Shown: piece after piece, positions 9,217 to 62,000 of the stretch
How positions within the stretch are numbered: the stretch's first letter is position 1
Layout: each line of letters begins with the position of its first letter
DNA from: an uncultured Ruficoccus sp.
GTDB taxonomy: Bacteria; Verrucomicrobiota; Verrucomicrobiia; Opitutales; Cerasicoccaceae
Assembly (NCBI GenBank): GCA_965140785.1
Contig: OZ223484.1
Span: 95,847 to 159,846, forward strand
Length of the DNA stretch: 64,000 nucleotides
Reading direction: 5' to 3'
The notes under the pieces: generated by a model
Databases searched by the model: none
Told to the model about the DNA's origin: nothing
The model's input: the letters and a program-made list of their open reading frames with translations, nothing else
Position numbers and translations under genes: made by a program

Positions 9217-9319
9217 GGGATTTGCGGATCGTTGAGCAAAAGATGCCGGATATTGCCCAGCTTTGCCTCCGGGTCAAGGCCCGAGTACGATCCACCGCCC
9301 GCCAAATAATCCCACCACC

Positions 9320-10288: not shown

Positions 10289-10400
10289 GGGCCGTCATTG
10301 CCGTACCGCCGCCCAGACTAACGTGGTATTAGTGCATAGCTCCCAGCACCACTCTGTGTTCTCGGTACCCTCTGTGGTTATCCCATTTATTCCAAAGGTC

Positions 10401-45964: not shown

Positions 45965-46108
45965 GCCCCTACCCTTTCTGACACATCGCCGCCGAAGGCG
46001 AGGCTATTTTCCCTGCCCCCCGCCGCCATCTGACCGGCATTGACACCGCCGCTTCCGGCTGGCTGGATAATTGAGCCCCCGCCCTGCCGCTTAACCTCCT
46101 CTTTACCC

Positions 46109-47389: not shown

Positions 47390-47423
47390 AACTACCGTCC
47401 CGGCGGTGTTTGCTGCCTGCATC

Positions 47424-47996: not shown

Positions 47997-48125
47997 AAGT
48001 TTGAGGGTTTACTGTTTGAGAGTTCAGCAGGCCGGAACGGAGAAAACTGTCGTTGTATAACCCTATTCAAGTCGTATCGCTAAAGAGATGGCCCGCGAAT
48101 TCCGGAAGCGGCTCCGCTTCCCGGA

Positions 48126-48896: not shown

Positions 48897-49588
48897 AAGT
48901 TTTTCTCCCACTTCCGCAAGCCGGGAACCTCGATCACAATGCGCTGCAGATCGACCTCCCCGCTCGGCAGCGGAGCGCCGTCTTTGGTGAACATGCGAAA
49001 CGGGATCTGCATGGTCACGCCGGGCTCGACCCGCTCGTTCCACTCGCACACATAGCCGTCTTCGAGATGAATTTTTATCGAGGGCCAGGCCTCGTTATTG
49101 TGATTGGTGATGAAAAAGATCCGTCCGCTGCGGGCGAGAGTCGCATCGACGCTGGGCTCGGGGGCCTCGCCCAGATCCTCGACCACGGACAGACGCTTGA
49201 TCATTTCCTCCCGGTCAACCAGCGTGCGCTGCTGGCTCTCCTTGTCTTTGACCGGTTCGGGCATGAAGTAATAAACCACCCCGGCGATAACGACCAGCAA
49301 CAGCCCCAACTGGAGAAAGAAGCCGAGCCGGGATTTCGGCAGGCTGAGGTCGGCCCGTTCTTCCGGCGTCATGACCGGCGCGGGATCGAGCAAAATCCAG
49401 GGCGGGTTCTGCTCCTCGGCCTGGGAAACGTGGAGGAGTTGCACCATCTGGTCCGGATTGTCCGCCGCGTAGTTGACCGCCTGGGTCAGGGAAACGGGCT
49501 CCTCGCCGGTTTCCTCGTCCACGCTCAGCCACCAGGCGTCCTTGGCGGATTCCTCCAACATCCACAGGCGTACTTCCCTCTCGGTCAT
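48893..49588 (-). CDS. Hypothetical single-pass membrane protein
   Basis: 231 aa with one central hydrophobic helix. Confidence 0.7.
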   Translation of the reverse strand: MTEREVRLWMLEESAKDAWWLSVDEETGEEPVSLTQAVNYAADNPDQMVQLLHVSQAEEQNPPWILLDPAPVMTPEERADLSLPKSRLGFFLQLGLLLVVIAGVVYYFMPEPVKDKESQQRTLVDREEMIKRLSVVEDLGEAPEPSVDATLARSGRIFFITNHNNEAWPSIKIHLEDGYVCEWNERVEPGVTMQIPFRMFTKDGAPLPSGEVDLQRIVIEVPGLRKWEKNF

Positions 49589-49632
49589 GCGGATAAACTC
49601 AGCGGCTCAGGGAGGTCCCCGAACCGATACGC

Positions 49633-50628
49633 TTAATCGGGTTGTTTTTCGAGCAGCTCCTGGTCGGAGCGAACCATGAGTGCGGCCAGGTCTTTCATGC
49701 GGGTGCGCGGCTCCCAGCCCAGCTTCTGCTTGGCTTTGGAGTAGTCACCGATCAACAGGTCCACCTCGGCCGGGCGCAGCAGGCGCTCGTCGAATTCCAC
49801 AAAATCCTTCCAGTCCAGGTCCACGCAGGAGAACGACGCCTCCAGGAAGTCCTTGATGCTGTGGGTCTCGTTGGTGGCGACCACGTAATCATCGGGTTCG
49901 TCCTGCTGAAGCATCAGCCACATGGCCTCGACGTACTCCTTGGCGTAGCCCCAGTCGCGGCGCGCGTCGAGATTGCCCAGATAGAGCTTGTCCTGGCGTC
50001 CGGCCTTGATCCGGGCCACCGCGCGCGTGATCTTGCGCGTGACAAAGTTCTCCCCCCGGCGCGGCGACTCGTGATTGAAGAGGATGCCGCTGCAGGCGTA
50101 AAGGTTGTACGATTCGCGGTAATTGATCGTCAGGTAGTGGGCCATGACTTTCGCGCAGGCGTAGGGCGAGCGCGGATACAGCGGGGTCTTTTCGGTCTGG
50201 GGAACCTCCTGGACCTTGCCGAACATCTCCGAGGAAGAAGCCTGGTAATAGCGCACGTGCTTGCCCAGCCCGGCCTCGCGAATGGCCTCCAGGATGCGAA
50301 CCGCTCCCGTACCGGTGGTGTCGATGGTGTACTCGGGAATGTCGAAACTCACCCGCACATGGCTCTGAGCGGCCAGATTGTAAACCTCGTCCGGCTGGAT
50401 CTGGTAGAGCAGCTTGACCAGGGCAACGGAGTCGCCCAGGTCCCCGTAATGCAGGAACAGGCGCTGTTTCTCGCCCTGTTCGAAGGCACGCAGATGATCG
50501 ATACGCCCCCGGTTCATTGAACTGGAGCGGCGGACGATGCCATGGACCTCGTAGCCCTTTTCCAGCAGAAGCTCCGCCAGATAAGACCCGTCCTGACCGG
50601 TGATGCCGGTGATGAGTGCTTTTTTCAT
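49633..50628 (-). CDS. gmd: GDP-mannose 4,6-dehydratase
   Basis: [47 protein letters not shown]. Confidence 0.96.
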
Positions 50629-50661
50629 ACTAATTTAAAATCTGTGAAACGCCCTATAGAA

Positions 50662-51639
50662 CTACTTCAGCCGGTCCAGGCAACAGGTAACTAGCCGGTC
50701 CATGATTTCTTCCATCGGAACCGTGTTCTTCCAGCCCAGCAGACGGCGGGCCTTGGAAGCGTTGCCGCAGGGGGCGTAGGGTTCGACCGCGGTAACCAGC
50801 TCCGGGTCGTATTTGACATAATCGCGCCAGTTGAGGTCCACGCTACTGAAGGCGGCCGCGACCAGTTCCTCCACCGTGTGAATGACCCCGGTGGCCAACA
50901 CAAAATCATCGACCGGTTGGCTCTGAAGCATCATCCACATCCCTTCGACATAATCGGGGGCCCACCCCCAGTCGCGCTTTCCGGCCAGGCTGCCCAGCGT
51001 CAACTCCTGCGCCTGCCCCAGCTTGATCAGGGCCACGGCCTGGGCGACCTTCATCGTGACAAAGTTCGTGCGACGGCGCGGGGACTCGTGGTTGTAGAGG
51101 ATGGCGGCGCAGGTGGGCAGCTTGTATGCGGTGCGGTAGATGCGGCACATCTCCTGCGAGAGCATCTTGGCCGCACCATACGGGGTCGTCGGACGCAGCG
51201 GGGTGGACTCATCCTGGGGCGAGTGAGCGGGCGAGCCGAAGACCTCCGCGCTGGAGGCATAGAGAAATTTCGGCGGCGTATCCATGTCACGAATTATCTC
51301 CAGCAGCCGCAGGGTCGCCATCCCGATACTGTCAACAGTGGTTTCCGGCAGCTCCAGGCTCAGGCGCGGGCTGGATTGCCCGGCCAGATGGTAAAACTCG
51401 TCCGGGCAGGCTTTGTTGATGATGCGCCGCAGGTGGGTGGCGTCTTCAAAGGCGCCATTATGGAGGAAGAGCCGCTTGCCCCAGATGTCATCCTCCTTAA
51501 TAAGGTGGCCTATGTTACTGGAGCCCAGCGTGTCCGGGCGGTGAACCAGTCCATGGACCATGTACCCCTTCTCTAGAAGAAGTTCACATAGATAGGATCC
51601 GTCCTGACCCGTAATCCCAGTAATAAAGGCAACCGGCAT
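50662..51639 (-). CDS. GDP-mannose 4,6-dehydratase paralog
   Basis: [38 protein letters not shown]; diverged from the adjacent gmd. Confidence 0.88.
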   Translation of the reverse strand: MPVAFITGITGQDGSYLCELLLEKGYMVHGLVHRPDTLGSSNIGHLIKEDDIWGKRLFLHNGAFEDATHLRRIINKACPDEFYHLAGQSSPRLSLELPETTVDSIGMATLRLLEIIRDMDTPPKFLYASSAEVFGSPAHSPQDESTPLRPTTPYGAAKMLSQEMCRIYRTAYKLPTCAAILYNHESPRRRTNFVTMKVAQAVALIKLGQAQELTLGSLAGKRDWGWAPDYVEGMWMMLQSQPVDDFVLATGVIHTVEELVAAAFSSVDLNWRDYVKYDPELVTAVEPYAPCGNASKARRLLGWKNTVPMEEIMDRLVTCCLDRLK

Positions 51640-51892: not shown

Positions 51893-51939
51893 TTGGTGCG
51901 GGCGGACGGAATCGAACCGACATCATCAGTTTGGAAGAC
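51893..51939. repeat. att site (displaced 3' part of tRNA-Gly)
   Basis: TTGGTGCGGGCGGACGGAATCGAACCGACATCATCAGTTTGGAAGAC identical to 60296-60342. Confidence 0.95.
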
Positions 51940-52013
51940 AAAACGTCCCCCTCATAAATACAGGGATAGAGGCCCAATCATGCCAGTATTCATTGACATG
52001 ACCGCAAAAATAC

Positions 52014-53219
52014 ATGGCAAAATTTCAGAAGGTAAAAGTCACGCGCCGGACTCTCCAGAAGGGCTCCTACCGATGGAAGACCTGGTATGTCGAAGGGTTT
52101 GACCACCTGGGCCACCGCATCCGCATCCAGCGCCAGAATAAAGGGGAAGCCTACGCCATCGCCAATGAGCTGGATATCAAGCTCCTCAACAGCGACCTGG
52201 AAGTGCGCCCACTGGCTACCCGCCTTAGCAAAGACCAGCTCAAGCAGGCCGAATACGCCTTTCACCGCCTCAATGGCCGGTGGACTCTGGAACATGTCTT
52301 GGATTTCTTCATCAAGAATCACTATGAGCCCGTAGAGATAGTCACGTTGGACAAGGCACGGGAGGCTTTCATCGAGCATAAGGAACAGCAGGGAGTGAAG
52401 ACCCGGCAATTAGCCTGCGTTACTCGCCGCCTGGCTAAAGCCATCGATCCCGACCGCTCCGTTCATGACGTGAACCAGTTGGATTGTGAGGAATTCCTCA
52501 CGGCAATATCCAGCCACCCGCAAACCCGCAACAACTACCGCTCGGACCTGCATAACTTCTTTAATTTCTGCCTGGGGCGCAAATGGATCGCACAAAATCC
52601 CGTTTCAGGAATCCCGCCGATGAAGGTTGCCCGTCGCCGCCCGACGATACTATCCGCGAAACGTACAGAAGCCTTCCTGCGCCACCTGGAGGGCCTTAAA
52701 GAGGGTCAATTGGTCCGGTACTATGCCTTGCTCCTATTCGCGGGGATACGACCAGGGGCAGACGGGGAAATTTTCAAACTCGATCAGGCCATTCGAAAAC
52801 ATGGGGAAGGTAGGTATCTGGATTTCGGGAACCGCGTGGTTCACTTGGAGCCCGAGCTTACCAAGACCGGCCACTACCGGCGCATCACAATCCGGCCCAA
52901 CCTGGCCGCCTGGCTGCAAGCCTACCCTGGCCCAATCATACCGCCCAATCTGTCCAATGATGTACGCCCATTAAGAAAGACTTTTGGCCTCACCCATGAC
53001 GTTTGCCGCCATACCTTCATTTCCATGCACGTAGCAAAATTCGGGTCGATTGGCAGGGCGGCTATTGAGGCCGGGAACAGCGAATCAGTTGTTAAAAAGC
53101 ATTACCATGAACAGGTTAGCAAAAACGAAGCTAAAGCGTTCTGGAGCATTTCGCCCGCGAGTAGGCCGTCGCAAGTGGAACATTCCGAGCGCTCGGAATG
53201 TTCCACGTTGGCCCCATAG
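52014..53219 (+). CDS. Tyrosine recombinase / integrase
   Basis: Catalytic set AGIRP (R), TKTG (K), HDVCRH (H..R), KHY (Y); TRNNYR core-binding region; 74 bp from att. Confidence 0.92.
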   Translation: MAKFQKVKVTRRTLQKGSYRWKTWYVEGFDHLGHRIRIQRQNKGEAYAIANELDIKLLNSDLEVRPLATRLSKDQLKQAEYAFHRLNGRWTLEHVLDFFIKNHYEPVEIVTLDKAREAFIEHKEQQGVKTRQLACVTRRLAKAIDPDRSVHDVNQLDCEEFLTAISSHPQTRNNYRSDLHNFFNFCLGRKWIAQNPVSGIPPMKVARRRPTILSAKRTEAFLRHLEGLKEGQLVRYYALLLFAGIRPGADGEIFKLDQAIRKHGEGRYLDFGNRVVHLEPELTKTGHYRRITIRPNLAAWLQAYPGPIIPPNLSNDVRPLRKTFGLTHDVCRHTFISMHVAKFGSIGRAAIEAGNSESVVKKHYHEQVSKNEAKAFWSISPASRPSQVEHSERSECSTLAP

Positions 53220-53362
53220 CCACCGGCATATTTTGGAACAAACGGTATGTACCGTTTGTTCCAATCTGGCCCAATAGGGGTGTTCGTATGTGGAACATAA
53301 AAGCCGATTTGGTGGAGTGATCTAAGCGCTTCCGACAGCGCGGTTGACATGGCGCTCATGGT

Positions 53363-53590
53363 ATGAGCGAAAAAATCAATACGCAACTTATAAACGCACA
53401 AGAACTACGCGAATGCGGTATCTGGAGCCCAGCTTGTGCTCCTGCTGTTACCACCATTCGCCGCCAGGCCCTTGAAGGGACACTACCATGCGTGAAGTTG
53501 GGAGGGCGCATCTATTTTGATGAGTCCGCCGTCCGAGAGCACATCGGCCAACGGCTAACCCGTCGTACGACTGCCGTCCCGAGCACGTAA
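53363..53590 (+). CDS. Excisionase/AlpA-like small DNA-binding protein
   Basis: 75 aa; TTIRRQALEGTLPCVKLGGRIYFD resembles Xis/MerR-type winged HTH; follows the integrase. Confidence 0.72.
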   Translation: MSEKINTQLINAQELRECGIWSPACAPAVTTIRRQALEGTLPCVKLGGRIYFDESAVREHIGQRLTRRTTAVPST

Positions 53591-53608
53591 CCCCAACCCG
53601 GCCCACGC

Positions 53609-54070
53609 ATGCTCGACCAACCTTCAACGCCCCATGGCTCTATCGATATGGAACATTCGGCCCGGGTCGAATGTTCCACTCCTTTACCTGAGGAAATATT
53701 CACGGCTTGGGGAAACGGCAACAGACCAACTCCGGCCTATTATCGCCATCCCTGCGACGACATAGACCCACCGCCTCCCGATCTGGCGAAGATTGAGGCG
53801 GTGCGCAGGGACGCACAGGAAGAGGCTCTCCAATGGTTCCGCAGGCTGATCCACCCCGAGCTTCCCGAACCCCATACAGCCCGCGAGAGGCAAGCCTACG
53901 CAAATGCTCAGGCCCGCCGTCTGGCTGTGATCGCCTTTCGCCTCGATGGCGGACCTGAAGCCGGCCTCCGATTGGGCGACTATGCTCGCGCCCTGGGGGT
54001 CAGTCCCAGCCGCTTGAGCGAGATCAATAAAGAAATCACCCCTCTCCTACCGGACACCATTCACTTCTAA
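53609..54070 (+). CDS. Hypothetical protein with C-terminal HTH
   Basis: LGDYARALGVSPSRLSEI HTH-like motif; start uncertain. Confidence 0.6.
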   Translation: MLDQPSTPHGSIDMEHSARVECSTPLPEEIFTAWGNGNRPTPAYYRHPCDDIDPPPPDLAKIEAVRRDAQEEALQWFRRLIHPELPEPHTARERQAYANAQARRLAVIAFRLDGGPEAGLRLGDYARALGVSPSRLSEINKEITPLLPDTIHF

Positions 54071-54120
54071 GTGGAACATAATATCCGGGCACTATGTTCC
54101 ACAAAATAAAATCATAAAAC

Positions 54121-54627
54121 ATGAAAAAAAATCCATATATATTTATAAATGAGAATCTTACTATCGAAGCCATAACGACTAGCTTCAACATCAAGCAGTC
54201 TGATGCAGTGCGGGAGGTAAAACGTACCTTATGCGCCTTTTATGGGCTTTCAAAACTCAAGAAATTTGCCCCTTTTCAGTGGGAAATTTTGGAAAAACTG
54301 CTCGATCCGAGCAAATTTTCCGCCCCTTGCGCTCGAAAGGAGCATACTTTTCTGACCTGGTTTCTCGCCTCAACCCTCAGAAAGCAGGGTGAAGGCCCTA
54401 CCAATGACGCTCTCACGGTCCGTGAACTATACCCGGTGTATGTTCGGTCATGTATTTTTTTCGGCACTCAACCGGAAAAAATTGAGGATTTTTCAACTTT
54501 TTTGGAGCAATATTTGCCCCTTTTTACCGGCCTAAAACTGGTCAAGATCAAGGGTTCCAGGTCTCCCAAAAAGCAGTTCATCCAAGACGGTGAGGTCAAT
54601 CCACATTCACCTTTTATTGTCAGCTAG
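54121..54627 (+). CDS. Hypothetical protein resembling the C-terminal winged-helix domain of D5/P4-type primases
   Basis: WFL....TVRELYPVYVRSC..G..P....F..FL pattern; AT-rich. Confidence 0.5.
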   Translation: MKKNPYIFINENLTIEAITTSFNIKQSDAVREVKRTLCAFYGLSKLKKFAPFQWEILEKLLDPSKFSAPCARKEHTFLTWFLASTLRKQGEGPTNDALTVRELYPVYVRSCIFFGTQPEKIEDFSTFLEQYLPLFTGLKLVKIKGSRSPKKQFIQDGEVNPHSPFIVS

Positions 54628-54742
54628 TCAGCTGTACTTCAACGACTTCCACTCATGGTACACCTACTCGACCGAGCCGCCCGCCCTTGCCCTGCCTTTG
54701 GCTTTTCGATCCTCCCGTCTTTCAATAAACCAGTAAAAGAAA

Positions 54743-54840
54743 CGGGAAAGTCGGGAGGGTTACGTTTTACCCTTGCGTATGCGCATAGGCGCAGGCGCAT
54801 AAGGGGGGGGTATGAAGGTCGTACCTTCCCAACCTTCCCG
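54743..54840. promoter_or_regulatory. Long imperfect palindrome, putative replication origin
   Basis: CGGGAAAGTCGGGAGGGTTACG ... CGTACCTTCCCAACCTTCCCG around inner TATGCGC/GCGCATA and CCCTT/AAGGG arms. Confidence 0.5.
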
Positions 54841-55256
54841 CCAGAATCGTCATGTTTCCCCGGAGGAAATGTCGCTGCTCCAGCGTACCCCCCGGTAAGG
54901 AATCTCTTTTCGCGGATCGTCTTCAAGGGTTTGGCGACTGATGTCGTTTTTCTCCGCGTGCGGTGTCGTAACTTACTGTCGTGTCGCTGCGCGGTGTCGT
55001 ATGGGTGCGGATCGCTTTCCGTGACCCGCAAATGCCATGTCAGCGCTCGCCTGGTCAACGGGAGAATCGGGACTGGGAAACGAAAAGCGAAGCGCGGGCA
55101 AGCCGCACGCCGTTCAAACTTGAGAAAAGGAGTTTGGAAGAAATCGAGCGCATAACGTCCTCTGCACCAATTCAATGTAAAATCACCCTGAAAGTGGAGC
55201 CCCTATAGGTGAGAACAGTTCAACTCCACTCAAACCCATCAGTAAAGGAAAACAAT

Positions 55257-55688
55257 ATGCCGCTTATTTACGCCAAAGACGCCGCCTTGGATAAAGCCGC
55301 CGTCAGAATGCGCCCCGCCTTCATAAAGGCCTTGGAAGCCCTAAACCTTACACCAGAGCAAGTCTGGGACAATGAAAACGCCATCACGGATGCCATCTCT
55401 AAGGCCGCTAAGCCGTCTCACGAGAACGAAAGCAAGGTGACTATCGAAAACGCCGCGATGCGTGAGGGCCTGTCCGCTGCCGGGATCAAGCTGCCGGAAA
55501 GCTGTGATAAGGCTGCGGTCGAGGCCGCTATCAAAAGACGCATTTCAATCGGTGCCAGTGAACAGCTTGCCGAGACCGGCGTAGCGATGCCCGTCGAAAT
55601 GAATCCGGAGATCGACCCCACTCAACCCGCTCGCAAGAGCTCCGACAAGACCGGCCTGGCCCGTATCAAGGGGTCTCTGAGCCAGTAA
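55257..55688 (+). CDS. Hypothetical protein, putative capsid scaffold
   Basis: AAAGGAA RBS; Ala/Glu/Lys-rich helical protein directly upstream of the capsid gene. Confidence 0.6.
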   Translation: MPLIYAKDAALDKAAVRMRPAFIKALEALNLTPEQVWDNENAITDAISKAAKPSHENESKVTIENAAMREGLSAAGIKLPESCDKAAVEAAIKRRISIGASEQLAETGVAMPVEMNPEIDPTQPARKSSDKTGLARIKGSLSQ

Positions 55689-55727
55689 TCGTAGGGCCGT
55701 CTCTTTAACCTCAAAACAATACGTAGA

Positions 55728-56642
55728 ATGTCAGAAAGAGCTTCCATGATCGACCTCGTCGCGCTCAATGCCGATCAATTCGGCCTGGGCGTCATTGAGG
55801 AAAGTCTCCAATCCGCACCGGAACTGAACGTGGCTCATGCTACTGTGATCAAGGGTACGAGTTATTTTAGTACGGTTCGCTTCGGACTGCCCCCTACGGG
55901 CTTCCGTGCTGCTAATGAAGGTATCAGCGCAGGAAAAAGCCGCTTCACCCAACGCCTGGTCCAATGCTTCATCTTCGACAGCCGCATCGAGTGCGACAAG
56001 GCCGTCGCGGATGCTTATGTAAGTGGCCCGGATATGTACAAGGCGCTTGAGAGTGTCGGCGTCATGGAAAGCGGACTCCGCTCCGTCGGTAATCAATTTT
56101 ATTATGGACCGGCGGGCACGGCCAGCAATGCCAACCGAGGATTCCCGGGTCTGATTGATCTCTACGATGCCGATAATATGGAAATCGATGCGGAGGGCGA
56201 AGCGGATAAGACTTCCGTGTGGGCTGTCCGGTTCGGCGAGCAGGATGTTCATTTTGTCCTGGGCAACAACGGCCCGCGCCTCCCAGGCCTGGAAGATTGG
56301 CGCGTGGAGACATTGCGGGATGAGGAGAATAAAGCCTACGACGGCTATGTCAGCAGCGCCGCCATGTGGATCGGTCTCGCCTGCCACAAAATCAACGCTG
56401 TCGCCCGCGTTAAGAACATCGGTAGCGCCGAAGGAAAAACGCTCACCTTTGACCATTTGTATCGGATGTTGGAGACCTTCCCTAGTGGGATGCCGCCGAC
56501 ACATATCTTTGCGAATAAGCGGTCGCTTCGCCAACTCCGCGAATCGAGGCGAACCGATTTAAATCCGACGCCTGAGACCCCAACGAACGTTGATGGCATT
56601 CCGATTGTCCCGACGGACTCCATTATTAACGCCGAGGCCTAA
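55728..56642 (+). CDS. Major capsid protein, epsilon15 gp7/BPP-1-like (HK97 fold)
   Basis: STVRFGLP..GFR.ANEG...KS, ECDKAVAD, YYG...F.GL..Y, IDA.G...TSVWAV.FG and GIPIVPTDSIINAEA C-terminus match my recollection of this family. Confidence 0.85.
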   Translation: MSERASMIDLVALNADQFGLGVIEESLQSAPELNVAHATVIKGTSYFSTVRFGLPPTGFRAANEGISAGKSRFTQRLVQCFIFDSRIECDKAVADAYVSGPDMYKALESVGVMESGLRSVGNQFYYGPAGTASNANRGFPGLIDLYDADNMEIDAEGEADKTSVWAVRFGEQDVHFVLGNNGPRLPGLEDWRVETLRDEENKAYDGYVSSAAMWIGLACHKINAVARVKNIGSAEGKTLTFDHLYRMLETFPSGMPPTHIFANKRSLRQLRESRRTDLNPTPETPTNVDGIPIVPTDSIINAEA

Positions 56643-56685
56643 ACACCTTTGTCGCACGAGCATGCGATAAGTGGCTGATAATATC

Positions 56686-56709
56686 GGGGGTGGCCATTTG
56701 GCCGCCCCC
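56686..56709 (+). other. GC-rich hairpin after the capsid gene
   Basis: GGGGGTGGCCA-tt-TGGCCGCCCCC; no clear U-tract. Confidence 0.45.
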
Positions 56710-56722
56710 TCCCCTTTCCCCA

Positions 56723-56866
56723 ATGATCAGGAGCTTATACATTATCATCAAAGGCTTGCTTTACTTGCCTGCCGCTATGCGGGTCCAGGCCAAAAATGAG
56801 AAAGCCATGATGAAACGCTTCAAGGCCGTCCAAGATGAACAGCACAAAAAGATAGGGTCAAACTGA
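56723..56866 (+). CDS. 47-aa small ORF coupled to the tape-measure gene
   Basis: MIRSLYIIIKGLLYLPAAMRVQAKNEKAMMKRFKAVQDEQHKKIGSN; its TGA overlaps the next ATG (TGATG). Confidence 0.55.
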   Translation: MIRSLYIIIKGLLYLPAAMRVQAKNEKAMMKRFKAVQDEQHKKIGSN

Positions 56867-58530
56867 TGTTCGGCATGGAGTCACTCACCGCCCGCCTGGG
56901 CCTCGATACCAAAGGCTACGAAAAAGACCTCAAAAGGGCCGAGGGGATCACCGGACGTGCTGCAAAAAAGATGGCTGGCATGTTCGCTGGCTTTCTCACC
57001 GTCTCGGGCCTCGTGGCCCTCGGCAAGCAAGCGATGGAAACCGCCGACCGTATCGGCAATATGGCGGACCGGCTCGGGCTGACCACGGATGAACTGCAAG
57101 ACTTCCTTAATGCCGCCCAGGCTGCCGGTATCGGCATCGACACCGCAGGCATGGCCCTTCAGCGTTGGACCCGTCGCCTGGCTGAAGCTCAACAAGGGAA
57201 GGGTGAGTTGGTAGGAATTTTAGAGCAGTACAACATTGAGTTGAGGGATGCCAGTGGCAATGCCCGCTCAGCCTCTGATGTGCTCAGGGACTATGCCAAT
57301 GCCGTCAAGCATGCTGAAAGCGAACAGGAACAGCTCCGCATGGCCTTCAAGGCTTTCGATTCCGAAGGAGCCGACTTGGTCCGCATTCTCAAAGGGGGCA
57401 CAGAGGCGTTGGATGAATTCACGAGAGTAGGGAATGAAAAGTTTGGAAAATTCTCCGATGACGTGACGCGCGAGCTTCAGGAATCCAAGCTCGAAATCGA
57501 AGCCTTCCAGAATCGCCTCACCGTCGGTTTCGGTAATATCCTGGTGGACTTCAAATCCAAGGAGGGCCTCACAAAGCTCGGTTACGGCCTACTGGAGCAG
57601 GGTGCGAAATTCGCCGGGATGCTTGCTGACGCAATCTACCAAGGAGCTGCTATCATCGGGGCGGTTTTCCCTCCCGCCATGCAGACGATTTGGGAGCTTA
57701 TCAAAGCCGGATTTGGGTATGTTAAAGATGTGGGCGAGGCCAGCTTTACCTATCTCTTTGATGTCGTTGGCTCACAATGGAAAACGATTGCACTCGGGAT
57801 AAAGACCTCCCTTCTAGACGCCGCTGATACGTTCCTGCGAAAGATTGAAGATGTGCCTTGGATCGGAAAGAAAGCCGTCGAGGCCAGAAAGTCCATCCAG
57901 TCAGAACTCAAGCTACTGGAATCCCAGCGCCCTGATGAAGTTAAGTCATTCAGCGAACGTCTCAGTAAGGTTGATGGTATTCCTGCCAGGATGGTAGCTG
58001 CCTACGATGAGATTTCCGATAAAATCGCCAAGAATCTAGCCCTCACCCGGGAAACGCATTTCTCGGAAGAATGGAGTAAGCCTTTCAGGGAGGGTAAAGA
58101 GGAAATGGATCGTATCCTTAATTCTTCGCTGTATAAGAAACCCCCTGTGCCACCGCCTAGTCCACAGTCGGATGCGGACTCTAGCGCCCCTGATAAGCCC
58201 GATCAAAAGCCTGTGTCCCAGAGCAAGCCTTCCGGGCCCTCGGGCTTGAAACCGGTCACCGTGCACCGGGGTATCTCCGGGGAGATTATCAACTGGGATG
58301 CCCTCACTCCCGAGCAAAAGGCCGCGCTCGCCAACACTCGCTATGCCACTGACCCTCGCCGCTCCGCTCGTGTCGCTGCGCTGCAAGGGGAGCCCACGGT
58401 TGCCGGCCTGCCCGCCGGCGCACCCCAGCAAAAAAACCAGGCCGCACAAATGGCGAAAGATATTGCAGAGCTGAAAAAGGCTACTCAGTCCATTGAATCT
58501 GACTTCAAGAAGGTACTGGGCCAGCCATAA
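56866..58530 (+). CDS. Tail tape-measure-like protein (554 aa)
   Basis: SLTARLGLDTKGY N-terminus; hydrophobic stretch; ADRIGNMADRLGLTTDELQ...AAQAAG TMP-type motif; Ala/Gly-rich helical body; Pro-rich tail. Confidence 0.75.
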   Translation: MFGMESLTARLGLDTKGYEKDLKRAEGITGRAAKKMAGMFAGFLTVSGLVALGKQAMETADRIGNMADRLGLTTDELQDFLNAAQAAGIGIDTAGMALQRWTRRLAEAQQGKGELVGILEQYNIELRDASGNARSASDVLRDYANAVKHAESEQEQLRMAFKAFDSEGADLVRILKGGTEALDEFTRVGNEKFGKFSDDVTRELQESKLEIEAFQNRLTVGFGNILVDFKSKEGLTKLGYGLLEQGAKFAGMLADAIYQGAAIIGAVFPPAMQTIWELIKAGFGYVKDVGEASFTYLFDVVGSQWKTIALGIKTSLLDAADTFLRKIEDVPWIGKKAVEARKSIQSELKLLESQRPDEVKSFSERLSKVDGIPARMVAAYDEISDKIAKNLALTRETHFSEEWSKPFREGKEEMDRILNSSLYKKPPVPPPSPQSDADSSAPDKPDQKPVSQSKPSGPSGLKPVTVHRGISGEIINWDALTPEQKAALANTRYATDPRRSARVAALQGEPTVAGLPAGAPQQKNQAAQMAKDIAELKKATQSIESDFKKVLGQP

Positions 58531-58541
58531 GGCCTTTTAGA

Positions 58542-58569
58542 TTGACGGCAGGGCTCCACGGTCTAGGCT
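58542..58569 (+). promoter_or_regulatory. Putative sigma70 promoter
   Basis: TTGACG-N16-TAGGCT upstream of the C4-like RNA. Confidence 0.5.
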
Positions 58570-58615
58570 TCTCTACATGGCCGTAGGAAGCCTACTTACA
58601 GTAACGATTGACTTT

Positions 58616-58680
58616 GCACCCGCGTGGCAGCCGGAGAGGGTATTACTGTACCCAATTCCTACCTCCGGCGGCGCGGGTGC
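58616..58680 (+). ncRNA. C4-like antisense RNA
   Basis: Stems GCACCCGCG/CGCGGGTGC, GCCGGAG/CTCCGGC and GGGTA/TACCC; exposed TTACTG loop and TTCCTAC bulge are complementary to upstream TACAGTAA (58597-58604) and GTAGGAA (58583-58589). Confidence 0.72.
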
Positions 58681-58696
58681 TCTGTATCAATAAACC

Positions 58697-59083
58697 ATGA
58701 ATATTACGTTCTCTGAAGATACAACCCAGCGGCTAAATCACATCGCCTATGCGCTAGGGATTAGAACAGAAACCATCGTCAAGGCAGTCTTTGATGGTGA
58801 GGCCATCGAAGGTTTTCTTGACCCTGCAGAAGTGCTAAATGCCTTCAATGGCTCAGATCATGAGCTTGGTTGTCTCGTCACTCTGCTGAACGATTTCCGT
58901 TCCCTGACCTGCGAGGAGCGCCAATCATTTTTCGCTGCTGCCGAAGCTTGCGGGGAGATTCCATATCAATATGCTATGCAATGTATTAGCATTCATGCCA
59001 ACAAAACTACCACTGAAAGCAAGCCTGGAGGAGTCTTCGAAAGAGACTTCTTCAGGAAATTGACTTTGCCAAAACTGAACTAA
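58697..59083 (+). CDS. Hypothetical protein downstream of the C4-like RNA
   Basis: 128-aa ORF; N-terminus MNITFSEDTTQRLNHIAYALG is ribbon-helix-helix-like. Confidence 0.6.
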   Translation: MNITFSEDTTQRLNHIAYALGIRTETIVKAVFDGEAIEGFLDPAEVLNAFNGSDHELGCLVTLLNDFRSLTCEERQSFFAAAEACGEIPYQYAMQCISIHANKTTTESKPGGVFERDFFRKLTLPKLN

Positions 59084-59127
59084 CTAAGAGGGCTGGAATT
59101 CCAGCCCACCATGTTTACGGTATACTC

Positions 59128-59433
59128 ATGTCAGAAAAACTGCCATATCCAACCCCCGGAGAAATCCTGAAGGAAATTCTTGAGGAGATGAAGATATCGC
59201 AGGCGCGACTTTCACGCCGGGCCGGAATTCCGGCCCGGCGTGTCAGCCAGATCATCAATGGCAAGCGCCCGATCACCGCCGAAGATTCCCTCAGACTGGG
59301 ATACCTGTTCGGCCAGTCAGACCCCTTCTGGCTCAACATGCAGCACGCCTACGACCTGCGCCAGGCCCGAGAAAAAATGGGCTCGCAAATCGAAAAAGAG
59401 ATCCAACCGCTCAACATCGAAAGCCAAGGCTGA
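59128..59433 (+). CDS. higA: HigA family antitoxin (XRE HTH)
   Basis: PTPGEILKE, SQARL, RVSQIINGKRPITAE..LRL..FG....FWLNMQ..YDL. Confidence 0.88.
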   Translation: MSEKLPYPTPGEILKEILEEMKISQARLSRRAGIPARRVSQIINGKRPITAEDSLRLGYLFGQSDPFWLNMQHAYDLRQAREKMGSQIEKEIQPLNIESQG

Positions 59434-60131
59434 TGCCTGCGAAGAAGCCATCGGATAAAAGTCTCCCGGCTGTCCAGGTCACATCAGTCCTTACACCTGA
59501 ACGGGGGCAACTCGGTGCAAACTTTCTCCGATTGGCTGATGACATCACGGACGGCGATATTAAGAACGTCGTTATTGGCCTACGCCACATCTATCGTTCA
59601 CATTTGTGGTGGATTGGGGATATCATTAGTGAAGTGGCTCGCTTACGTCCACAAACAGATGCACATGGTAAGGCGATCTCGGATGCTCACCCTCTCAAAA
59701 ACGAACGTGTCTGTATGATCGCAGATAGCTTTGGGATCGGCACTGAAGAGAGAATCCGACAAATTTGGCGAGTCTGCTTTCATATTCCCCCTGATAAACG
59801 CATTCAGGGTGCATCATTTACCCATCATGAAACCGCCCTGCGCGAAGCCTCGGGAGATATCAAGCTAGCCATAAAGTGGGTACGCCTCGCCGCTGATGAA
59901 GGGCTCAGCGTATCTAAAATGCGTGCTGAGCTGCGTCAGGATATGGCAAAGCCCATCGAAAGATGTGAGCCTGAAACGGACCCGGATCGCGAAGTCTCTA
60001 TACGATTCTCAGAATTTTACAGAATCAAGCGAATCGTATCTCAGATTGATATCAAAGATATGACCAAAGATGACCGACAAACACTTAAGTCAGACATGAA
60101 AGAGGTCGTTGATTTCCTGAATAGGCTATGA
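59433..60131 (+). CDS. Hypothetical DNA-binding protein, LmbU-like
   Basis: WWIGD, RV...P...R...SFTHH, W...A...GLSV..MR pattern; TGATG coupling to higA. Confidence 0.55.
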   Translation: MPAKKPSDKSLPAVQVTSVLTPERGQLGANFLRLADDITDGDIKNVVIGLRHIYRSHLWWIGDIISEVARLRPQTDAHGKAISDAHPLKNERVCMIADSFGIGTEERIRQIWRVCFHIPPDKRIQGASFTHHETALREASGDIKLAIKWVRLAADEGLSVSKMRAELRQDMAKPIERCEPETDPDREVSIRFSEFYRIKRIVSQIDIKDMTKDDRQTLKSDMKEVVDFLNRL

Positions 60132-60296
60132 CCTTCTTGTCATGTCGGAGTCATGTCAAAAACACGGTTTTTTTCGCGCTTTTTGATCGTTTTTCGATCA
60201 TTTTGTGATTTGACCGTGAGCAAACTTCAGGAGTAGTATTGATCACATAAGCCGCTAACCGTCACGATAATGGCATCTTAGCCGAATCCTCAAAAT

Positions 60297-60370
60297 TGGT
60301 GCGGGCGGACGGAATCGAACCGACATCATCAGTTTGGAAGACTGAGGTTTTACCACTAAACTACGCCCGC
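60297..60370 (-). tRNA. tRNA-Gly (TCC)
   Basis: Reverse complement GCGGGCGTAGTTTAGTGGTAAAACCTCAGTCTTCCAAACTGATGATGTCGGTTCGATTCCGTCCGCCCGCACCA: cloverleaf, TCC anticodon, GTTCGA T-loop, CCA end. Confidence 0.97.
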
Positions 60371-60491
60371 GCAATGAAGTAGGGCAGGAGACTTGACCCG
60401 GAAGGGCTTAACGGTCAAGCTAATACCATCAATCAACCTCGATTCCGGGTTGCTTTAGCTAGCGTTTAACCCCACATCCCAGGCAGAGCCC

Positions 60492-61652
60492 ATGGCCATG
60501 TTATCACAGAGCGCAACCGCCAGTACGGCGGCTGGCAGGAAGAAAAAGCTGACCTTTGCCGAGAAGCAACGCCTGGCCAAACTGCGCTCTTATGAGAAAC
60601 AGGCTCGCCGCAAGAAGATCAAACTTGCGGATTTGACGGTCTTCACGCAGCAGATTGCCTCCATGCTTGAGGCCGGGTTGCCCCTGGTTTCCGCTCTGGA
60701 TGCCCTCCAGGAACAGACGGAAAACCCCGTCTTTCGAATCATCATCCGGGATGTGCGCAACGATATTTCCAGTGGCACGCCGTTCTCGGACGCCGTTCGC
60801 AAGTTCCCCCGGGCCTTTCCCAACCTCTTTGTCAGCATGGTGGAAGCCGGGGAAGCTTCCGGTGCGCTTGCCGATATCCTGGCCAAGGTAGCCGTGTACT
60901 TCGAGGAGTCGCTGGCGCTGTCCAAGAAGGTCAAAAGCGCCATGACCTACCCGGTCGCCGTCATCCTGCTCGCCGTGGGCCTGGTCAGCGTGCTGCTGAT
61001 CAAGGTTATCCCGGTCTTCGCCGGGATGTTTAACGACTTTGGAGCCCCGTTGCCCAAGCCGACTCAGATGCTGATCGATCTGAGCGAATTTCTCCAGAGC
61101 TATATCCTCTTCATCATCGCGGGTGTGATTGGCCTGATCTTTCTCTACAAGAAAATCACCCAGACCCCGGGCGGACGTGAAGCCCGGGACACCGTGCAAA
61201 ATAAGCTCCCGATCATGGGCAACCTGACCCGAAAGATCAACGTTTCGCGCTTCTGCCGCACCTATTCCATCCTACTGCGCAGCGGCGTACCCATCCTCCG
61301 GGCTCTGGAAATCTGCTCCAGTGCCTCGGACAATGTTTTTATCGAAAAGGCCTGCACCAACATCAGTCGCCACATCAGCCAGGGGGGACAGCTCTCCGAT
61401 GTCGTCGCCACCACCCCGTACTTTCCTCCCATGGTCAAGCACATGGCCCGGGCCGGCGAGCAGACCGGTAACGTGGACGGCATGATGAACAAGATTTCGG
61501 ATTTCTACGACACCGAGGTGGAGAACATCGTGGAGTCGCTCACCTCTCTGATGGAGCCGATCCTGATCTGCGTGCTGGGCGTCATCATCGGCGGCATCGT
61601 CATGGCCATGTTCCTGCCGATCTTCCAGCTCTCCTCCGTCATCAAGGCCTAG
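60492..61652 (+). CDS. pilC: Type IV pilus assembly / T2SS F protein PilC
   Basis: FTQQIASMLEAGLPL, AGEASGAL, KVKSAMTYP, AGEQTGNV, MEPILI, AMFLPIF. Confidence 0.9.
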   Translation: MAMLSQSATASTAAGRKKKLTFAEKQRLAKLRSYEKQARRKKIKLADLTVFTQQIASMLEAGLPLVSALDALQEQTENPVFRIIIRDVRNDISSGTPFSDAVRKFPRAFPNLFVSMVEAGEASGALADILAKVAVYFEESLALSKKVKSAMTYPVAVILLAVGLVSVLLIKVIPVFAGMFNDFGAPLPKPTQMLIDLSEFLQSYILFIIAGVIGLIFLYKKITQTPGGREARDTVQNKLPIMGNLTRKINVSRFCRTYSILLRSGVPILRALEICSSASDNVFIEKACTNISRHISQGGQLSDVVATTPYFPPMVKHMARAGEQTGNVDGMMNKISDFYDTEVENIVESLTSLMEPILICVLGVIIGGIVMAMFLPIFQLSSVIKA

Positions 61653-61673
61653 GCAGGTTACACCTGCTGGTAT

Positions 61674-61716
61674 TGAGGGGGCAAGCCCCCTACGGAGCCA
61701 GAAAGGCTCCTACCCC
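61674..61716 (+). repeat. REP-like two-hairpin dispersed repeat, copy 3
   Basis: AGGGGGC-aa-GCCCCCT-AC-GGAGCC-agaaa-GGCTCC-TACCCC. Confidence 0.72.
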
Positions 61717-61894
61717 GGCAACGGACAAGGCGGTTTATGGTGGCTACCCGGTTTGCACTGAGTTCATGAGGATCGGAGCTGAAGATTGGGCACAGCCCCC
61801 ATGCATGCTGGGCACATCAGCCGAAGAAAGCGCTGGGCCCCATTAGCCACAAAACCGCTCGCCGGCGAAGTACCTCAGAAGCCAATCCCTCCCG

Positions 61895-61974
61895 AGGTAG
61901 CCGCCTTTCTGGCGGCGTAGGGGCAGAGCCCCTGAGTGTCGTGTGCGGCCACGCACCGTAGGGGCAGAGCCCCT
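61895..61974 (-). repeat. REP-like two-hairpin dispersed repeat, copy 4, plus a duplicated half copy
   Basis: Reverse complement AGGGGCTCTGCCCCTAC-GCCGCC-agaaa-GGCGGC-TACC at 61895-61934; CGTAGGGGCAGAGCCCCT repeated at 61957-61974. Confidence 0.72.
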
Positions 61975-62000
61975 CAATGCCAGCGGAGGTACTCCGCCGC

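Follow-up and report, generated by a model that had tools for sequence, protein, structure and literature searches.

A stretch of DNA from an uncultured Ruficoccus sp., analysed over its full length of 64,000 nucleotides (hereafter the window), contains a discrete 8,403-bp integrated element that encodes both a complete major capsid protein (MCP) of the BPP-1/epsilon15 type and a homologue of phage tape-measure proteins (TMPs), and lacks genes for terminase, portal, connector, tail tube, tail tip and lysis. We consider it reasonably likely that this element represents an integrative satellite of phages, either still functional or inactivated not long ago. It is unlikely to be a mere leftover of a prophage; four further small integrase elements of the order encode a relative of its TMP, and siblings of its structural proteins with about 75% identity exist elsewhere.

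Insertion site and gene content

The element is delimited by 47-nt direct repeats that are 100% identical and spaced 8,403 bp apart, so that the excised unit has the size given in the first-pass annotation. The left copy (attL, 51893–51939) duplicates the 3′-terminal 46–47 nt of a tRNA-Gly(TCC) gene, whereas the right copy (attR, 60296–60342) lies inside that gene and forms its 3′ part (60297–60370, reverse strand; ARAGORN; Rfam tRNA, 72 bits). This gene, the sole tRNA within the window, is the target into whose 3′ end the element has been integrated by a tyrosine integrase. In 500-base windows, GC content is 0.43–0.62 across the element (52000–60499; 15 of the 17 windows are between 0.50 and 0.58) as opposed to 0.58–0.67 in 11 windows of the flank (46000–51499). 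Moreover, a congener (G004) has an empty attB, with tRNA-Gly placed directly between the same flanking genes and no insert. Given the perfect repeats, the empty site and the compositional contrast, the element is a discrete, precise and recent insertion. In two other congeners the site is occupied by a 21.6-kb defense-type island (G001) and a 2.5-kb insert (G003). A full prophage at this site, of which the element could be a deletion remnant as the first-pass annotation had envisaged, was found in none of the four congeners (G001–G004), among which the state of the site is clear in all but G002.

All 11 main ORFs of the element are on the forward strand, in agreement with the one-directional order originally described. 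The calls of an integrase and an xis-like gene likewise stand: the first ORF encodes a 401-aa tyrosine integrase (52014–53219; phrog_1, 3.3e-18, with weak XerC/D-like matches) that is 82% identical to the integrase of the G001 island and 30% identical to that of a sister element (L071, see below), and the second encodes a 75-aa excisionase/AlpA-like HTH_17 protein (53363–53590; PF12728, 5.4e-6, 27 bits at a cut-off of 27) that is 37% identical to the matching ORF in L071. The next gene, orf153 (53609–54070), with a C-terminal HTH (weak HTH_31 match, E 0.022) and with viral or Verrucomicrobiota hypothetical proteins as its closest Atlas clusters, is possibly a regulator. This early region harbors a cluster of GTGGAACAT-armed palindromes (53175–54102; inverted repeats I4, I5 and I10), located at 53175–53206, 53649–53680 and 54071–54102, with a half-site at 53290; all six matches to GTGGAACAT in the window fall within this interval, versus 0.24 expected, and the palindromes might be operators or terminators. 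For orf168 (54121–54627), there is no family match in Pfam, PHROGs or NCBIfam, and among 1.84 billion representatives we detected a single 168-aa sibling (P0108, 53% identity), which marks it as a real gene, and two weak matches, one of which (P0109) is a repeat protein; the description of its product as primase-domain-like finds no support. The following 581 bp (54628–55208), which had been taken for a palindromic non-coding region, are indeed devoid of a credible gene and of Rfam matches, but contain only short direct repeats, such as an 11-mer in two copies 31 nt apart, the strong palindromes being those upstream; this gap is a candidate ori/pac region.

At the attR end, a forward-strand intergenic stretch behind the TMP gene (58531–58696) is predicted to fold stably (MFE −66.4 kcal/mol, z −3.65; 0 of 200 shuffles equally stable); nevertheless, the proposal of a C4-like RNA finds no Rfam match at E ≤ 1. 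It is followed by orf128 (58697–59083), which has no match in family searches including Pfam, PHROGs, NCBIfam and PADLOC, by a 101-aa HigA-family antitoxin or HTH regulator (59128–59433; TIGR02607, 86.6 bits against 47.7; phrog_1381, 1.5e-21), in accord with the original higA call, and by the phage-associated orf232 (59433–60131), whose Atlas neighbors are viral or Verrucomicrobiota hypothetical proteins. The suggestion that orf232 is LmbU-like finds no support, with the LmbU model scoring 21 bits versus a cut-off of 125.

The structural proteins

The 304-aa product of the gene at 55728–56642 is a major capsid protein with the HK97 fold of the epsilon15 gp7/BPP-1 type, as the first-pass annotation had surmised in calling it a capsid protein. 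It matches the NCBIfam equivalog NF045672 (MCP_gp7_epsi_15) with 148 bits versus a cut-off of 75, over model positions 3–308 of 309, as well as PF20911 (74 bits versus 27) and phrog_212. Its AF2 model (pLDDT 83) folds like the capsid proteins of BPP-1, Carin1 and epsilon15 (3j4u and 3j40 being the best matches; for BPP-1 3j4u, E 1.4e-19, TM 0.73), and the capsid of the cf-PICI EcCI2 (9gyi) ranks 26th among the fold matches. Directly upstream is orf159 (55209–55688), which probably starts at the ATG at 55257 and then encodes 143 aa. Its assignment as a scaffold could not be confirmed by relatives, none of which were found; it is a candidate protease-less scaffold, a role suggested by its position and by a C-terminal ...GLAR-x4-L... 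motif, a likeness of about 9 residues to the C-terminal GLARFAAGI of the protease-scaffold proteins whose genes precede those for related MCPs. In relatives, the MCP gene is followed by an ORF of 132–150 aa; here a putative gene for 58 aa or fewer, without family matches, comes next (56690–56866), and its stop overlaps the start of the TMP gene (TGATG, 56864–56868), which bears out at this one junction the translational coupling that had been noted.

The identification of the 554-aa protein encoded at 56866–58530 as TMP-like was likewise upheld. It matches 24 PHROG families, 19 of them in the tail category and 17 named tape measure; the best match (2e-22) covers residues 33–194, and phrog_2854 aligns with residues 18–504. 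The model is almost entirely helical, with a confident domain at 55–200 and a proline-rich linker at 420–476, and its named BFVD matches are mostly TMPs. It is nevertheless conceivable that only the N-terminal domain of TMPs is shared and that the protein has another role, for example, in DNA entry or membrane insertion. In line with this possibility, the matches to tape-measure families involve the N-terminal 200 residues and conservation with phage TMPs is limited to residues of about 30–230, the scores are just below the cut-offs for PF10145 (32.6 versus 33.2) and TIGR01760 (27.1 versus 28.8), the rest of the model is of low confidence (mean pLDDT 50), and the gene is not accompanied by one for a chaperone. 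We consider this very improbable in view of the extent of the phrog_2854 alignment, the match of a homologue in another small element (L212) to phrog_9483 at 9e-91, and the 850-aa protein of a sister element (G012), which shares 47% identity, across 831 residues, with the 857-aa TMP of a true prophage tail module from a congener, where Dit, a tail protein and a J-like fiber come next.

Both structural proteins have full-length siblings, known as proteins without contigs: P0045 is 74% identical to the MCP, and P0002 is 76% identical to the TMP along its entire 554 aa and hardly differs from it in a C-terminal block. Together with the 53% identity between orf168 and P0108, this conservation indicates that the capsid, TMP and orf168 genes have been maintained by selection. 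Beyond the capsid and TMP genes, comparison of the 11 ORFs with Pfam, PHROGs and NCBIfam (E ≤ 0.1) revealed no terminase, portal, connector, tail-tube, chaperone or lysis families, so the originally reported lack of packaging, tail and lysis genes holds; only the integrase and the TMP exceed 304 aa. No replication, TerS or pac/cos functions were recognized in the element, nor were a tail assembly chaperone, a prohead protease or a cement protein, which related phages keep beside these genes.

Related elements, potential helpers and known satellites

A search for the TMP across the order yielded matches in 15 of 401 genomes, and five of the 15 are small integrase elements, including the present one, with the contexts of several matches judged from rough ORF calls and from BLAST against hand-chosen reference proteins rather than from profiles. 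Other genera harbor related small elements, each with an integrase and a relative of this tape measure; the first-pass annotation would have taken the absence of independent elements as a refutation. Three of the four others are flanked by tRNA-derived repeats: L071 (9,653 bp, tRNA-Pro, 25-bp repeat), L073 (9,823 bp, tRNA-Lys, 57-bp repeat) and L211 (13,347 bp, tRNA-Thr, perfect 47-bp repeat), which also encodes a Toprim/AAA_25 primase-helicase. The fourth, L212, carries within 7.3 kb genes for an integrase, HTH_17, DUF5906 and, in one row, TerS (Terminase_4), MCP (PF05065), Peptidase_S78 protease and a TMP that runs past the contig end. As the first three elements compared have only int, xis and TMP in common, at 25–40% identity, this apparent family seems to reflect a common architecture and not close kinship. 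Furthermore, among 49 IMG/VR loci that have a relative of the MCP and 98 loci that have one of the TMP, not a single locus carries both. Because the two lineages never co-occur in these 147 phage loci, the MCP-TMP pair appears to be of mosaic origin.

Both the genus and the order include phages with the same capsid family plus portal and terminase. Infection of the genus by phages of this capsid type is attested by a prophage in G004 and by a truncated relative on contig C4 of the host genome, so this phage lineage is a candidate helper class. The host genome, 90.9% complete, yielded no helper phage, no second MCP homologue and no head genes of the G001-type prophage, and the element shows no DNA similarity to candidate helper-type prophages. 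When the ORFs of 26 phage and prophage loci were compared with the whole genome by tblastn, a single 5-kb bin of the element was matched, the one holding the MCP gene; it attracted 13 matches, and among the matches listed all four are to the MCP. The prophage on contig C4 of this genome is clearly truncated and adjoins an IS, and the TMP of this remnant is related to TMPs of the phage lineage with the same capsid family.

The first-pass annotation proposed that the element may be a satellite of an undescribed type. The discrete element with capsid and TMP genes and without packaging or tail genes stands; the novelty of the type does not. EPIPs, 11-kb satellites of the Mycolicibacterium aichiense prophage HerbertWM, encode a scaffold, an MCP and a TMP and form particles whose heads are smaller and whose tails are changed in length (Qian et al., bioRxiv Dec 2025, PMC12822802). 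In the EPIP genome OR387110 ('Alyssa1'), a 156-aa ORF (6891–7361), the MCP (7458–8282) and the TMP (8355–10310) adjoin, so that the two elements share a very small genome, a contiguous series of an approximately 150-aa ORF (the scaffold in EPIPs), MCP and TMP, and the lack of portal, large terminase, tail-tube and lysis genes. However, EPIPs come from another phylum and possess a serine integrase, a small terminase, a head-to-tail adaptor and a stopper, whereas the present element has a tyrosine integrase and no recognized counterparts of the others; EPIP tails are longer than those of the helper, whereas the TMP described here is shorter than resident phage-type TMPs; and no match with E below 0.1 was found between OR387110 and the 11 proteins by tblastn. 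PLEs of Vibrio cholerae, of about 18 kb, remodel the helper capsid via a scaffold and lack an MCP of their own, unlike the present element, in which, conversely, no chaperone or hub is recognized. According to Mathur, Boyd et al. (Nature 2026, PMC12987554), PLEs encode their own TMP, a tail assembly chaperone and, in some cases, a baseplate hub; the TMP, about 20% identical to that of the helper, takes its place in chimeric tails and enters satellite virions, which have contractile tails 10 nm shorter. The length of the tail follows that of the TMP, and PLE-like elements and some cf-PICIs also have putative tmp genes. The likeness to PLEs lies in a satellite-encoded TMP.

The cf-PICIs are integrative satellites with heads built from their own HK97-fold MCP and tails from the helper, as is proposed for the present element, and they also have genes of their own for portal, terminases, protease and connectors; by comparison, the ORFs of the element other than int and TMP encode at most 304 aa and match none of the portal, terminase, protease and connector families. 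With BPP-1 of Bordetella and epsilon15 of Salmonella, the element shares the MCP family (NF045672 above cut-off). The T=7 heads of those phages are stabilized by a cement or staple protein distinct from the MCP, alongside a scaffold or protease; the element has no gene at the position of the 132–150-aa ORF that comes after the MCP in relatives. Finally, the minimal satellites of marine bacteria and Vibrio (VEIMEs and PICMIs) are comparable in size range, tRNA integration and minimal gene set but differ from the element, which has a TMP; VEIMEs have been found integrated in Verrucomicrobia, among other taxa (PMC9618062).

Satellite, remnant or interference island

The principal alternative history is that of a temperate siphophage integrated at tRNA-Gly that lost three blocks (terminase-portal-protease, connectors-tube-chaperones and tail tip-lysis), leaving int, xis, a few early genes, the MCP and a functionless TMP. 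The gene order of the element is indeed colinear with that of temperate siphophages, for example, the G052 prophage (TerL, portal, protease, MCP, six small genes, TMP); the truncated prophage on C4 demonstrates that decay occurs in this genome; no helper, replication or packaging functions were recognized; and the contigs of two runs show no junction indicative of excision. Yet all retained ORFs are intact with no detectable fragment of a neighboring phage gene, the att repeats are perfect even on the unselected side, and the MCP-TMP junction is tidy, down to the overlapping stop and start. Moreover, the 74–76% identical full-length siblings imply long maintenance of both ORFs, a TMP within an integrase element of no more than 13 kb recurs at four other sites, the succession of MCP and TMP recurs in L212 and EPIPs, and the MCP and TMP lineages are absent together from all 147 phage loci. 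On balance, decay is an unlikely explanation.

We regard as distinctly improbable a defense or interference island that is not transferred in particles and in which a dominant-negative MCP and TMP are cargo that poisons how invading phages assemble their capsids and tails. This idea draws on the G001 island, which combines the 82% identical integrase and the same site with defense-type cargo (AAA_15 and UvrD helicase, a type III restriction subunit and a PD-(D/E)XK nuclease), and on the HigA-like gene and unassigned ORFs near attR. Published reports further document satellite interference with tail assembly by Rta of PLE11 (PMC12987554) and tail-assembly interference systems in PICIs and prophages (PMC12987554; PMC11364771). 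Against it, PADLOC detected no defense family among the 11 ORFs apart from weak HTH matches, and the full-length, fold-complete MCP and the wholly conserved TMP resemble working virion parts; in known cases, furthermore, piracy and interference are coupled, so that interference would be a facet of the satellite lifestyle.

Under the favored interpretation as a satellite, a helper siphophage would infect the cell or be induced, and the integrase and the HTH_17 excisionase would release an 8.4-kb circle. The MCP would assemble on the helper portal, with the 143–159-aa protein encoded upstream probably acting as a protease-less scaffold, into heads either sized for about 8 kb or filled with concatemers, and the helper terminase would package the element. 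The 554-aa TMP would displace the longer TMP of the helper in helper-built tails, as PLE TMPs do, to yield chimeric tails roughly 80 nm long, and the helper's own assembly may be spoiled simultaneously. The original rationale, in which the element contributes no more than the two virion parts that determine size, for a small head and a shorter tail, is doubtful as a general one because the G012 TMP is of prophage length and three of the five small elements encode a TMP without a recognizable MCP. Satellites that encode both a capsid and a tape-measure protein have been described just recently, in other bacteria, and the present element likely adds a case from Verrucomicrobiota.

Insertion at tRNA-Gly and gene content

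The element is an integrated unit at positions 51893-60342 of the window, which is G000:C13:95847-159846 in a genome of 4.36 Mb (50 contigs, 90.9% complete), and is bounded by a 47-nt direct repeat whose two copies (51893-51939 and 60296-60342) are identical and spaced 8,403 bp apart. The right copy constitutes the 3' part of a tRNA-Gly(TCC) gene on the minus strand (60297-60370; 72 bits in Rfam), the sole tRNA of the window. The GC content of 500-base windows across the element (52000-60499) is 0.43-0.62, with 15 of the 17 at 0.50-0.58, and that of the DNA to its left is 0.58-0.67 (11 windows of 500 bases, 46000-51499). In the congener G004, two GDP-mannose-dehydratase-like genes, the tRNA and a gspF-like gene are contiguous and the site is empty, so the 8.4 kb of the element are an insertion into an otherwise conserved site. 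As for the flanks themselves, the left one (49633-51639) encodes two tandem GDP-mannose-4,6-dehydratase-like paralogues of 331 and 325 aa, a pair kept in G004, and nested G+C-rich inverted repeats with 41- and 38-nt arms lie directly downstream of the gspF-like gene (61652-61998).

All eleven ORFs between the repeats are on the plus strand, and all were searched against Pfam, PHROGs, NCBIfam and PADLOC. The integrase (52014-53219) matches tyrosine-recombinase families (phrog_1, 3.3e-18; XerC/D) and is followed by an HTH_17 excisionase-like gene (53363-53590), by orf153 with a weak C-terminal HTH, by orf168, which has no family, and by a gap of 581 bp. Upstream of the gene for the major capsid protein (MCP; 55728-56642) lies orf159, also without a family and 143 aa long in the public gene call; between the MCP gene and that of the 554-aa tape-measure-like protein (TMP; 56866-58530) there is a 58-aa ORF without a family match whose stop overlaps the TMP start. 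A structured spacer of 166 nt directly follows the TMP gene, and then come orf128, HigA (TIGR02607, 86.6 bits) and orf232. None of the 11 ORFs has a family match to a terminase, portal, protease, connector, tube, chaperone, tip or lysis protein in Pfam, PHROGs or NCBIfam, or to a primase or helicase in Pfam or PHROGs. Moreover, no ORF other than those of the integrase and the TMP exceeds 304 aa, which is enough to rule out a large terminase or portal.

The first-pass annotation stands with respect to the attachment repeats, integrase, capsid protein and tape measure, but three of its labels do not. The orf168 product, which it called primase-like, has one sibling (P0108, 53% identical) and otherwise nothing real among 1.84 billion representatives; a weak match to a 684-aa protein concerns a repeat protein, and the primase assignment is rejected. 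The spacer 3' of the TMP gene (58528-58698) folds far better than shuffled sequences (z -3.65), but 58531-58696 yields no Rfam match at E <= 1 that would bear out a C4-like RNA, and orf232, taken to be LmbU-like, reaches 21 bits where the cut-off is 125. Look-ups of orf153 and orf232 in the Atlas returned unnamed viral or Verrucomicrobiota clusters only. The sequence GTGGAACAT occurs six times in the window against 0.24 expected, all within 53175-54102, in three palindromes and one half-site. One palindrome falls within the coding sequence for the integrase C-terminus and one within that for the orf153 N-terminus, and a further perfect hairpin is found in the spacer between the integrase and excisionase-like genes (~53232-53265). 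These palindromes and the hairpin could be operators or terminators.

Capsid and tape-measure proteins

The MCP matches the equivalog model NF045672 (MCP_gp7_epsi_15) with 148.1 bits (cut-off 75) over model positions 3-308 of 309, and PF20911 with 74.2 bits (cut-off 27). Its AF2 model, built from a 35-row alignment, has a pLDDT of 83, and the best solved-structure matches are the capsid proteins of BPP-1 (3j4u, E 1.4e-19, TM 0.73), Carin1 (8cjz) and epsilon15 (3j40, E 7e-11). By profile and predicted structure, the assignment to the epsilon15 gp7/BPP-1 family with an HK97-like fold is secure. Relatives of the MCP are present in 13 of the 401 genomes of the order and, as judged by PHROG annotation or BLAST with in-house reference proteins, nine of them (in G052, G004, G019, G007, G149, G081, G343, G344 and G242) lie 1-3 kb downstream of a portal homologue, mostly with a large terminase as well. 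Therefore, the usual context of this MCP runs from a portal through a 314-450-aa protease-scaffold, the MCP and a ~135-150-aa ORF onward to a TMP. The relatives in G062, G063 and G189 have no portal or terminase match in the flank examined by BLAST with reference proteins. That of G062 (L230:9202-10520, G062:C120), at 45% the closest genomic relative, directly adjoins a tRNA-Asp close to the end of its contig, has upstream of it only ORFs of 91-132 aa, and may belong to another capsid-bearing mini-element; in G189 (L237:8385-10694, G189:C3), an isolated 402-aa MCP-like ORF (28% identity) is flanked by tRNA-Met/tRNA-Gly on one side and tRNA-Phe on the other.

The C-terminus of the orf159 product reads ...GLAR-x4-L..., and that of the protease-scaffolds which precede related MCPs reads ...GLARFAAGI(K)LP...; this motif of ~9 residues, which is without statistical support, suggests that orf159 is a candidate scaffold in which the protease has been lost and the tail that binds the capsid retained. 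Scored against an HMM built from 14 such preceding proteins, orf159 reached no meaningful value (1.8 bits), and complex prediction with the MCP alignment and orf159 returned a score of 0.00, 'no answer' in either direction. The PDB title of 3j4u describes the BPP-1 chainmail as 'secured by jellyroll'. A chaperone, a protease and a cement protein are all absent from the element, and a helper would have to supply them.

Of the 24 PHROG families that the TMP matches, 19 belong to the category tail and 17 bear the name tape measure; the best match (2e-22) covers residues 33-194 and that to phrog_2854 extends over residues 18-504, while the scores against PF10145 and TIGR01760 are each ~1 bit short of the cut-off. 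Its AF2 model (mean pLDDT 50) is nearly all helical, with 20 helices over most of the 554 residues and a disordered Pro-rich stretch at 420-476, but is confident only at 55-200. In BFVD, this model has 69 matches at E <= 0.001, of which the named ones are mostly tape measures, with TM-scores of ~0.3, a result weakened by the low confidence of the model. Taken together, the profiles and the model make the tape-measure prediction, which draws mainly on the N-terminal domain, a good one. Among the 401 genomes of the order, 15 contain relatives of this domain, which are also present in 381 IMG/VR stretches and in 18 genome contigs, most of the latter alphaproteobacterial prophages. A search of genomes at the family level, which comprises 16 genomes only, added nothing, and a metagenome scan with a two-sequence TMP alignment recovered six loci, all N-terminal-only at 44-51%, and no sibling element.

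In five of these 15 genomes, the source genome included, the TMP relative lies within a small integrase element, and tRNA-derived direct repeats bound three of the four sister elements. One (L071:7527-17204, in G012) is inserted at tRNA-Pro between 25-bp repeats 9,653 bp apart and encodes a repressor, an excisionase, small ORFs, an 850-aa TMP, a DnaD/HTH_36 replication-initiator-like protein and an integrase; another (L073:4920-14799, in G008), at tRNA-Lys between 57-bp repeats that are 96% identical and 9,823 bp apart, encodes an integrase, a 631-aa TMP, an excisionase and HigB-HigA; a third (L211:4607-18000, in G152), at tRNA-Thr between perfect 47-bp repeats 13,347 bp apart, encodes an integrase, a Toprim/AAA_25 primase-helicase and a 543-aa TMP. 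The fourth (L212:2566-11125, in G233) has, within 7.3 kb, an integrase, HTH_17, DUF5906, a small terminase (TerS; Terminase_4), a 211-aa ORF, an MCP (PF05065), Peptidase_S78 and a TMP (phrog_9483, 9e-91) that runs off the contig end. The first three of the five elements, beginning with the present one, have only the integrase, excisionase and TMP in common, at 25-40% identity. Over 831 residues, the TMP of the tRNA-Pro element shares 47% identity with an 857-aa TMP from a true tail module of the congener G011, one that also encodes Dit, a tail protein and a J-like fibre; thus, these small elements carry real, full-length tape measures.

With respect to function, tail length follows the TMP at ~0.15 nm per residue as a rule of thumb. 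At that rule, the 554-aa protein would specify a tail of ~83 nm, whereas the TMPs of the resident phage type, at 740-754 aa, would correspond to ~111-113 nm. For PLE11, a TMP with 95 fewer residues leads to tails that are shorter by 10 nm (PMC12987554). Because the TMP of the tRNA-Pro element equals its phage counterpart in length, replacement of the TMP may matter more than its length; such replacement could serve compatibility, escape from interference, or poisoning of helper tails.

Satellite, remnant or island

We consider the element to be probably a phage satellite. It has its own integration functions (the att repeats, the integrase, the HTH_17 excisionase-like gene and the empty site in G004), and by family searches its 11 ORFs lack the genes for a whole virion and hence would depend on a helper, both generic features of satellites. 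A decayed prophage, of which the capsid and tape-measure genes would be the residue, could likewise have so few phage genes, and a tail-only prophage remnant does exist elsewhere in this genome. Nevertheless, we regard this explanation as unlikely. Relics of other phage genes were not found: tblastn of ORFs from 26 phage or prophage loci, run on the whole genome, matched the element in one 5-kb bin only, that of the MCP, and all four matches listed, of 13, are to the MCP. The origin of the element appears mosaic, since relatives of the two proteins do not co-occur, either in the 49 IMG/VR loci that contain one of the MCP or in the 98 loci that contain one of the TMP, and in IMG/VR no other element protein is common to the 49 MCP-relative and 80 TMP-relative loci. 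Moreover, siblings exist of the MCP (P0045, 74%) and of the TMP (P0002, 76% identical over the full length, with a nearly invariant C-terminal block), as well as of orf168, and no full prophage was seen at the tRNA-Gly site in the congeners G001, G003 and G004. Together with the contexts of the relatives, these observations speak for an element that is reduced and maintained rather than for random decay, although they do not prove mobility.

The tRNA-Gly attachment site is a hot spot among congeners. In G001 it holds a 21.6-kb island (L190/L191, G001:C1:1455800-1479800) bounded by copies of the element's att sequence (an exact 31-nt stretch present twice; a second copy of 61 nt by DNA search), with an integrase 82% identical to that of the element, and in G003 a 2.5-kb insert with a 31-34-bp att copy. 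The G001 island carries an AAA_15 and a UvrD helicase gene, a pair which we take to be Gabija-like, a type III restriction subunit (ResIII/endonuclease protein), DUF4062-HATPase_c_4, a PD-(D/E)XK nuclease, DUF932 and an 837-aa family-B DNA polymerase (DNA_pol_B_2); structural genes are absent. That the element is an interference island is quite improbable in our estimate; PADLOC returned only weak HTH matches for its 11 ORFs. A gene transfer agent or encapsulin was dropped as a candidate, given the att sites, the integrase and an MCP that is an equivalog of a viral MCP family, and the remaining probability falls to other readings. As regards excision, no contig connecting attL with attR or bypassing the element was found in the Logan contigs of two runs of one study that contain it, X1 (probably the source run) and X2. 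Word depth in Logan contigs is 8.4-9.1 for those of the element and 6.8 and 5.6 for the flanks; these figures permit no ranking, the GC of element and flanks differs, and we base no conclusion on them.

If the element is a satellite, phages of the capsid lineage of its MCP are a candidate helper class. The source genome (90.9% complete) has no second MCP homologue. Its contig C4 (L069:7800-17700, G000:C4:92800-102700) contains the tail-only prophage remnant, which adjoins an IS, with an rve transposase just upstream, and encodes a 754-aa TMP followed by a Fic-domain ORF, a hub (BR0599 and phiJL001-gp84 domains), NlpC/P60 and Rcc01698_C. These proteins are 87-95% identical to the tail half of a complete-looking G001 prophage (L174/L175) with TerS, TerL and portal, whose head genes were not found in the source genome. 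The remnant TMP is related to TMPs of phages with BPP-1-type MCPs; therefore, phages of that lineage infect the genus. A comparison of the element's DNA with nine prophage loci and with the remainder of the source genome revealed no similarity that could represent a common cos or pac site.

Relation to known satellites and implications

A close parallel in gene order is offered by EPIPs, satellites of 11 kb in which TerS, an adaptor and a stopper occur with a serine integrase, a scaffold, an MCP and a TMP (PMC12822802). In the EPIP record OR387110 (6891-10310), a 156-aa ORF, the MCP and the TMP are adjacent, and the element likewise has a scaffold-MCP-TMP block at 55209-58530 (orf159 as candidate scaffold, MCP, the 58-aa ORF and TMP). 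In contrast, its integrase is of the tyrosine type; a small terminase, head-to-tail adaptor and stopper have no family match, with remote homologues possible among orf153, orf168, orf128 and orf232; and for none of the 11 element proteins did tblastn find anything in OR387110 at E below 0.1. On these sequence comparisons, the element falls outside EPIPs by integrase type, TerS, adaptors and homology. Capsid-forming PICIs encode their own portal, large and small terminases, protease and connectors beside the MCP; none of these was detected in the element, which has no ORF of sufficient size. P4-like satellites rely on a primase-helicase (alpha), Sid/Psu/Delta and the helper's cos site, whereas the element has no primase or helicase match and no DNA in common with the candidate helpers.

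PLEs incorporate their own TMP, and the same study notes putative tmp genes in PLE-like elements and some cf-PICIs (PMC12987554). The element resembles PLEs in encoding its TMP itself and differs from them in that no recognised tail assembly chaperone stands beside it, only the 58-aa ORF. Thus, the element would act as EPIPs do and, as far as the tail is concerned, as PLEs do. The first-pass interpretation therefore holds in part: a satellite remains the preferred reading, but one set apart from all known types does not. VEIMEs are found integrated in Verrucomicrobia and are without capsid genes (PMC9618062), and our literature search found no prior account of a Verrucomicrobiota satellite carrying structural genes.

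We put forward one joint reading, tentatively and as something short of probable. Verrucomicrobiota, at the level of this order, would harbor a loose family of 8-13-kb, tRNA-integrating, tail-centred mini-satellites whose recurrent piracy gene is the TMP, with capsid modules added independently: a BPP-1-type MCP with a protease-less scaffold here, and an HK97-type MCP with protease and TerS in G233. At 8.4 kb, the element would be the smallest known to specify its own head shell and tail ruler, with portal, terminase, tube and tip taken from a helper.

The first demonstration of tape measures encoded by satellites, in PLEs, dates only from 2025-2026, and the scaffold-MCP-TMP satellite, the EPIP, is known from one actinobacterial host. 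If the joint reading is true, the same solution would have arisen independently in an unrelated and poorly studied phylum, from proteins of no common origin and with still fewer genes, and alongside it there would be sister elements in which the tape measure alone is kept. Candidate satellites with structural genes would then be added from Verrucomicrobiota, the element would offer a natural system of minimal size in which to ask how an MCP and a TMP of foreign origin fit into a helper's portal and tail, and manipulation of tails would count as a general dimension of satellite biology.
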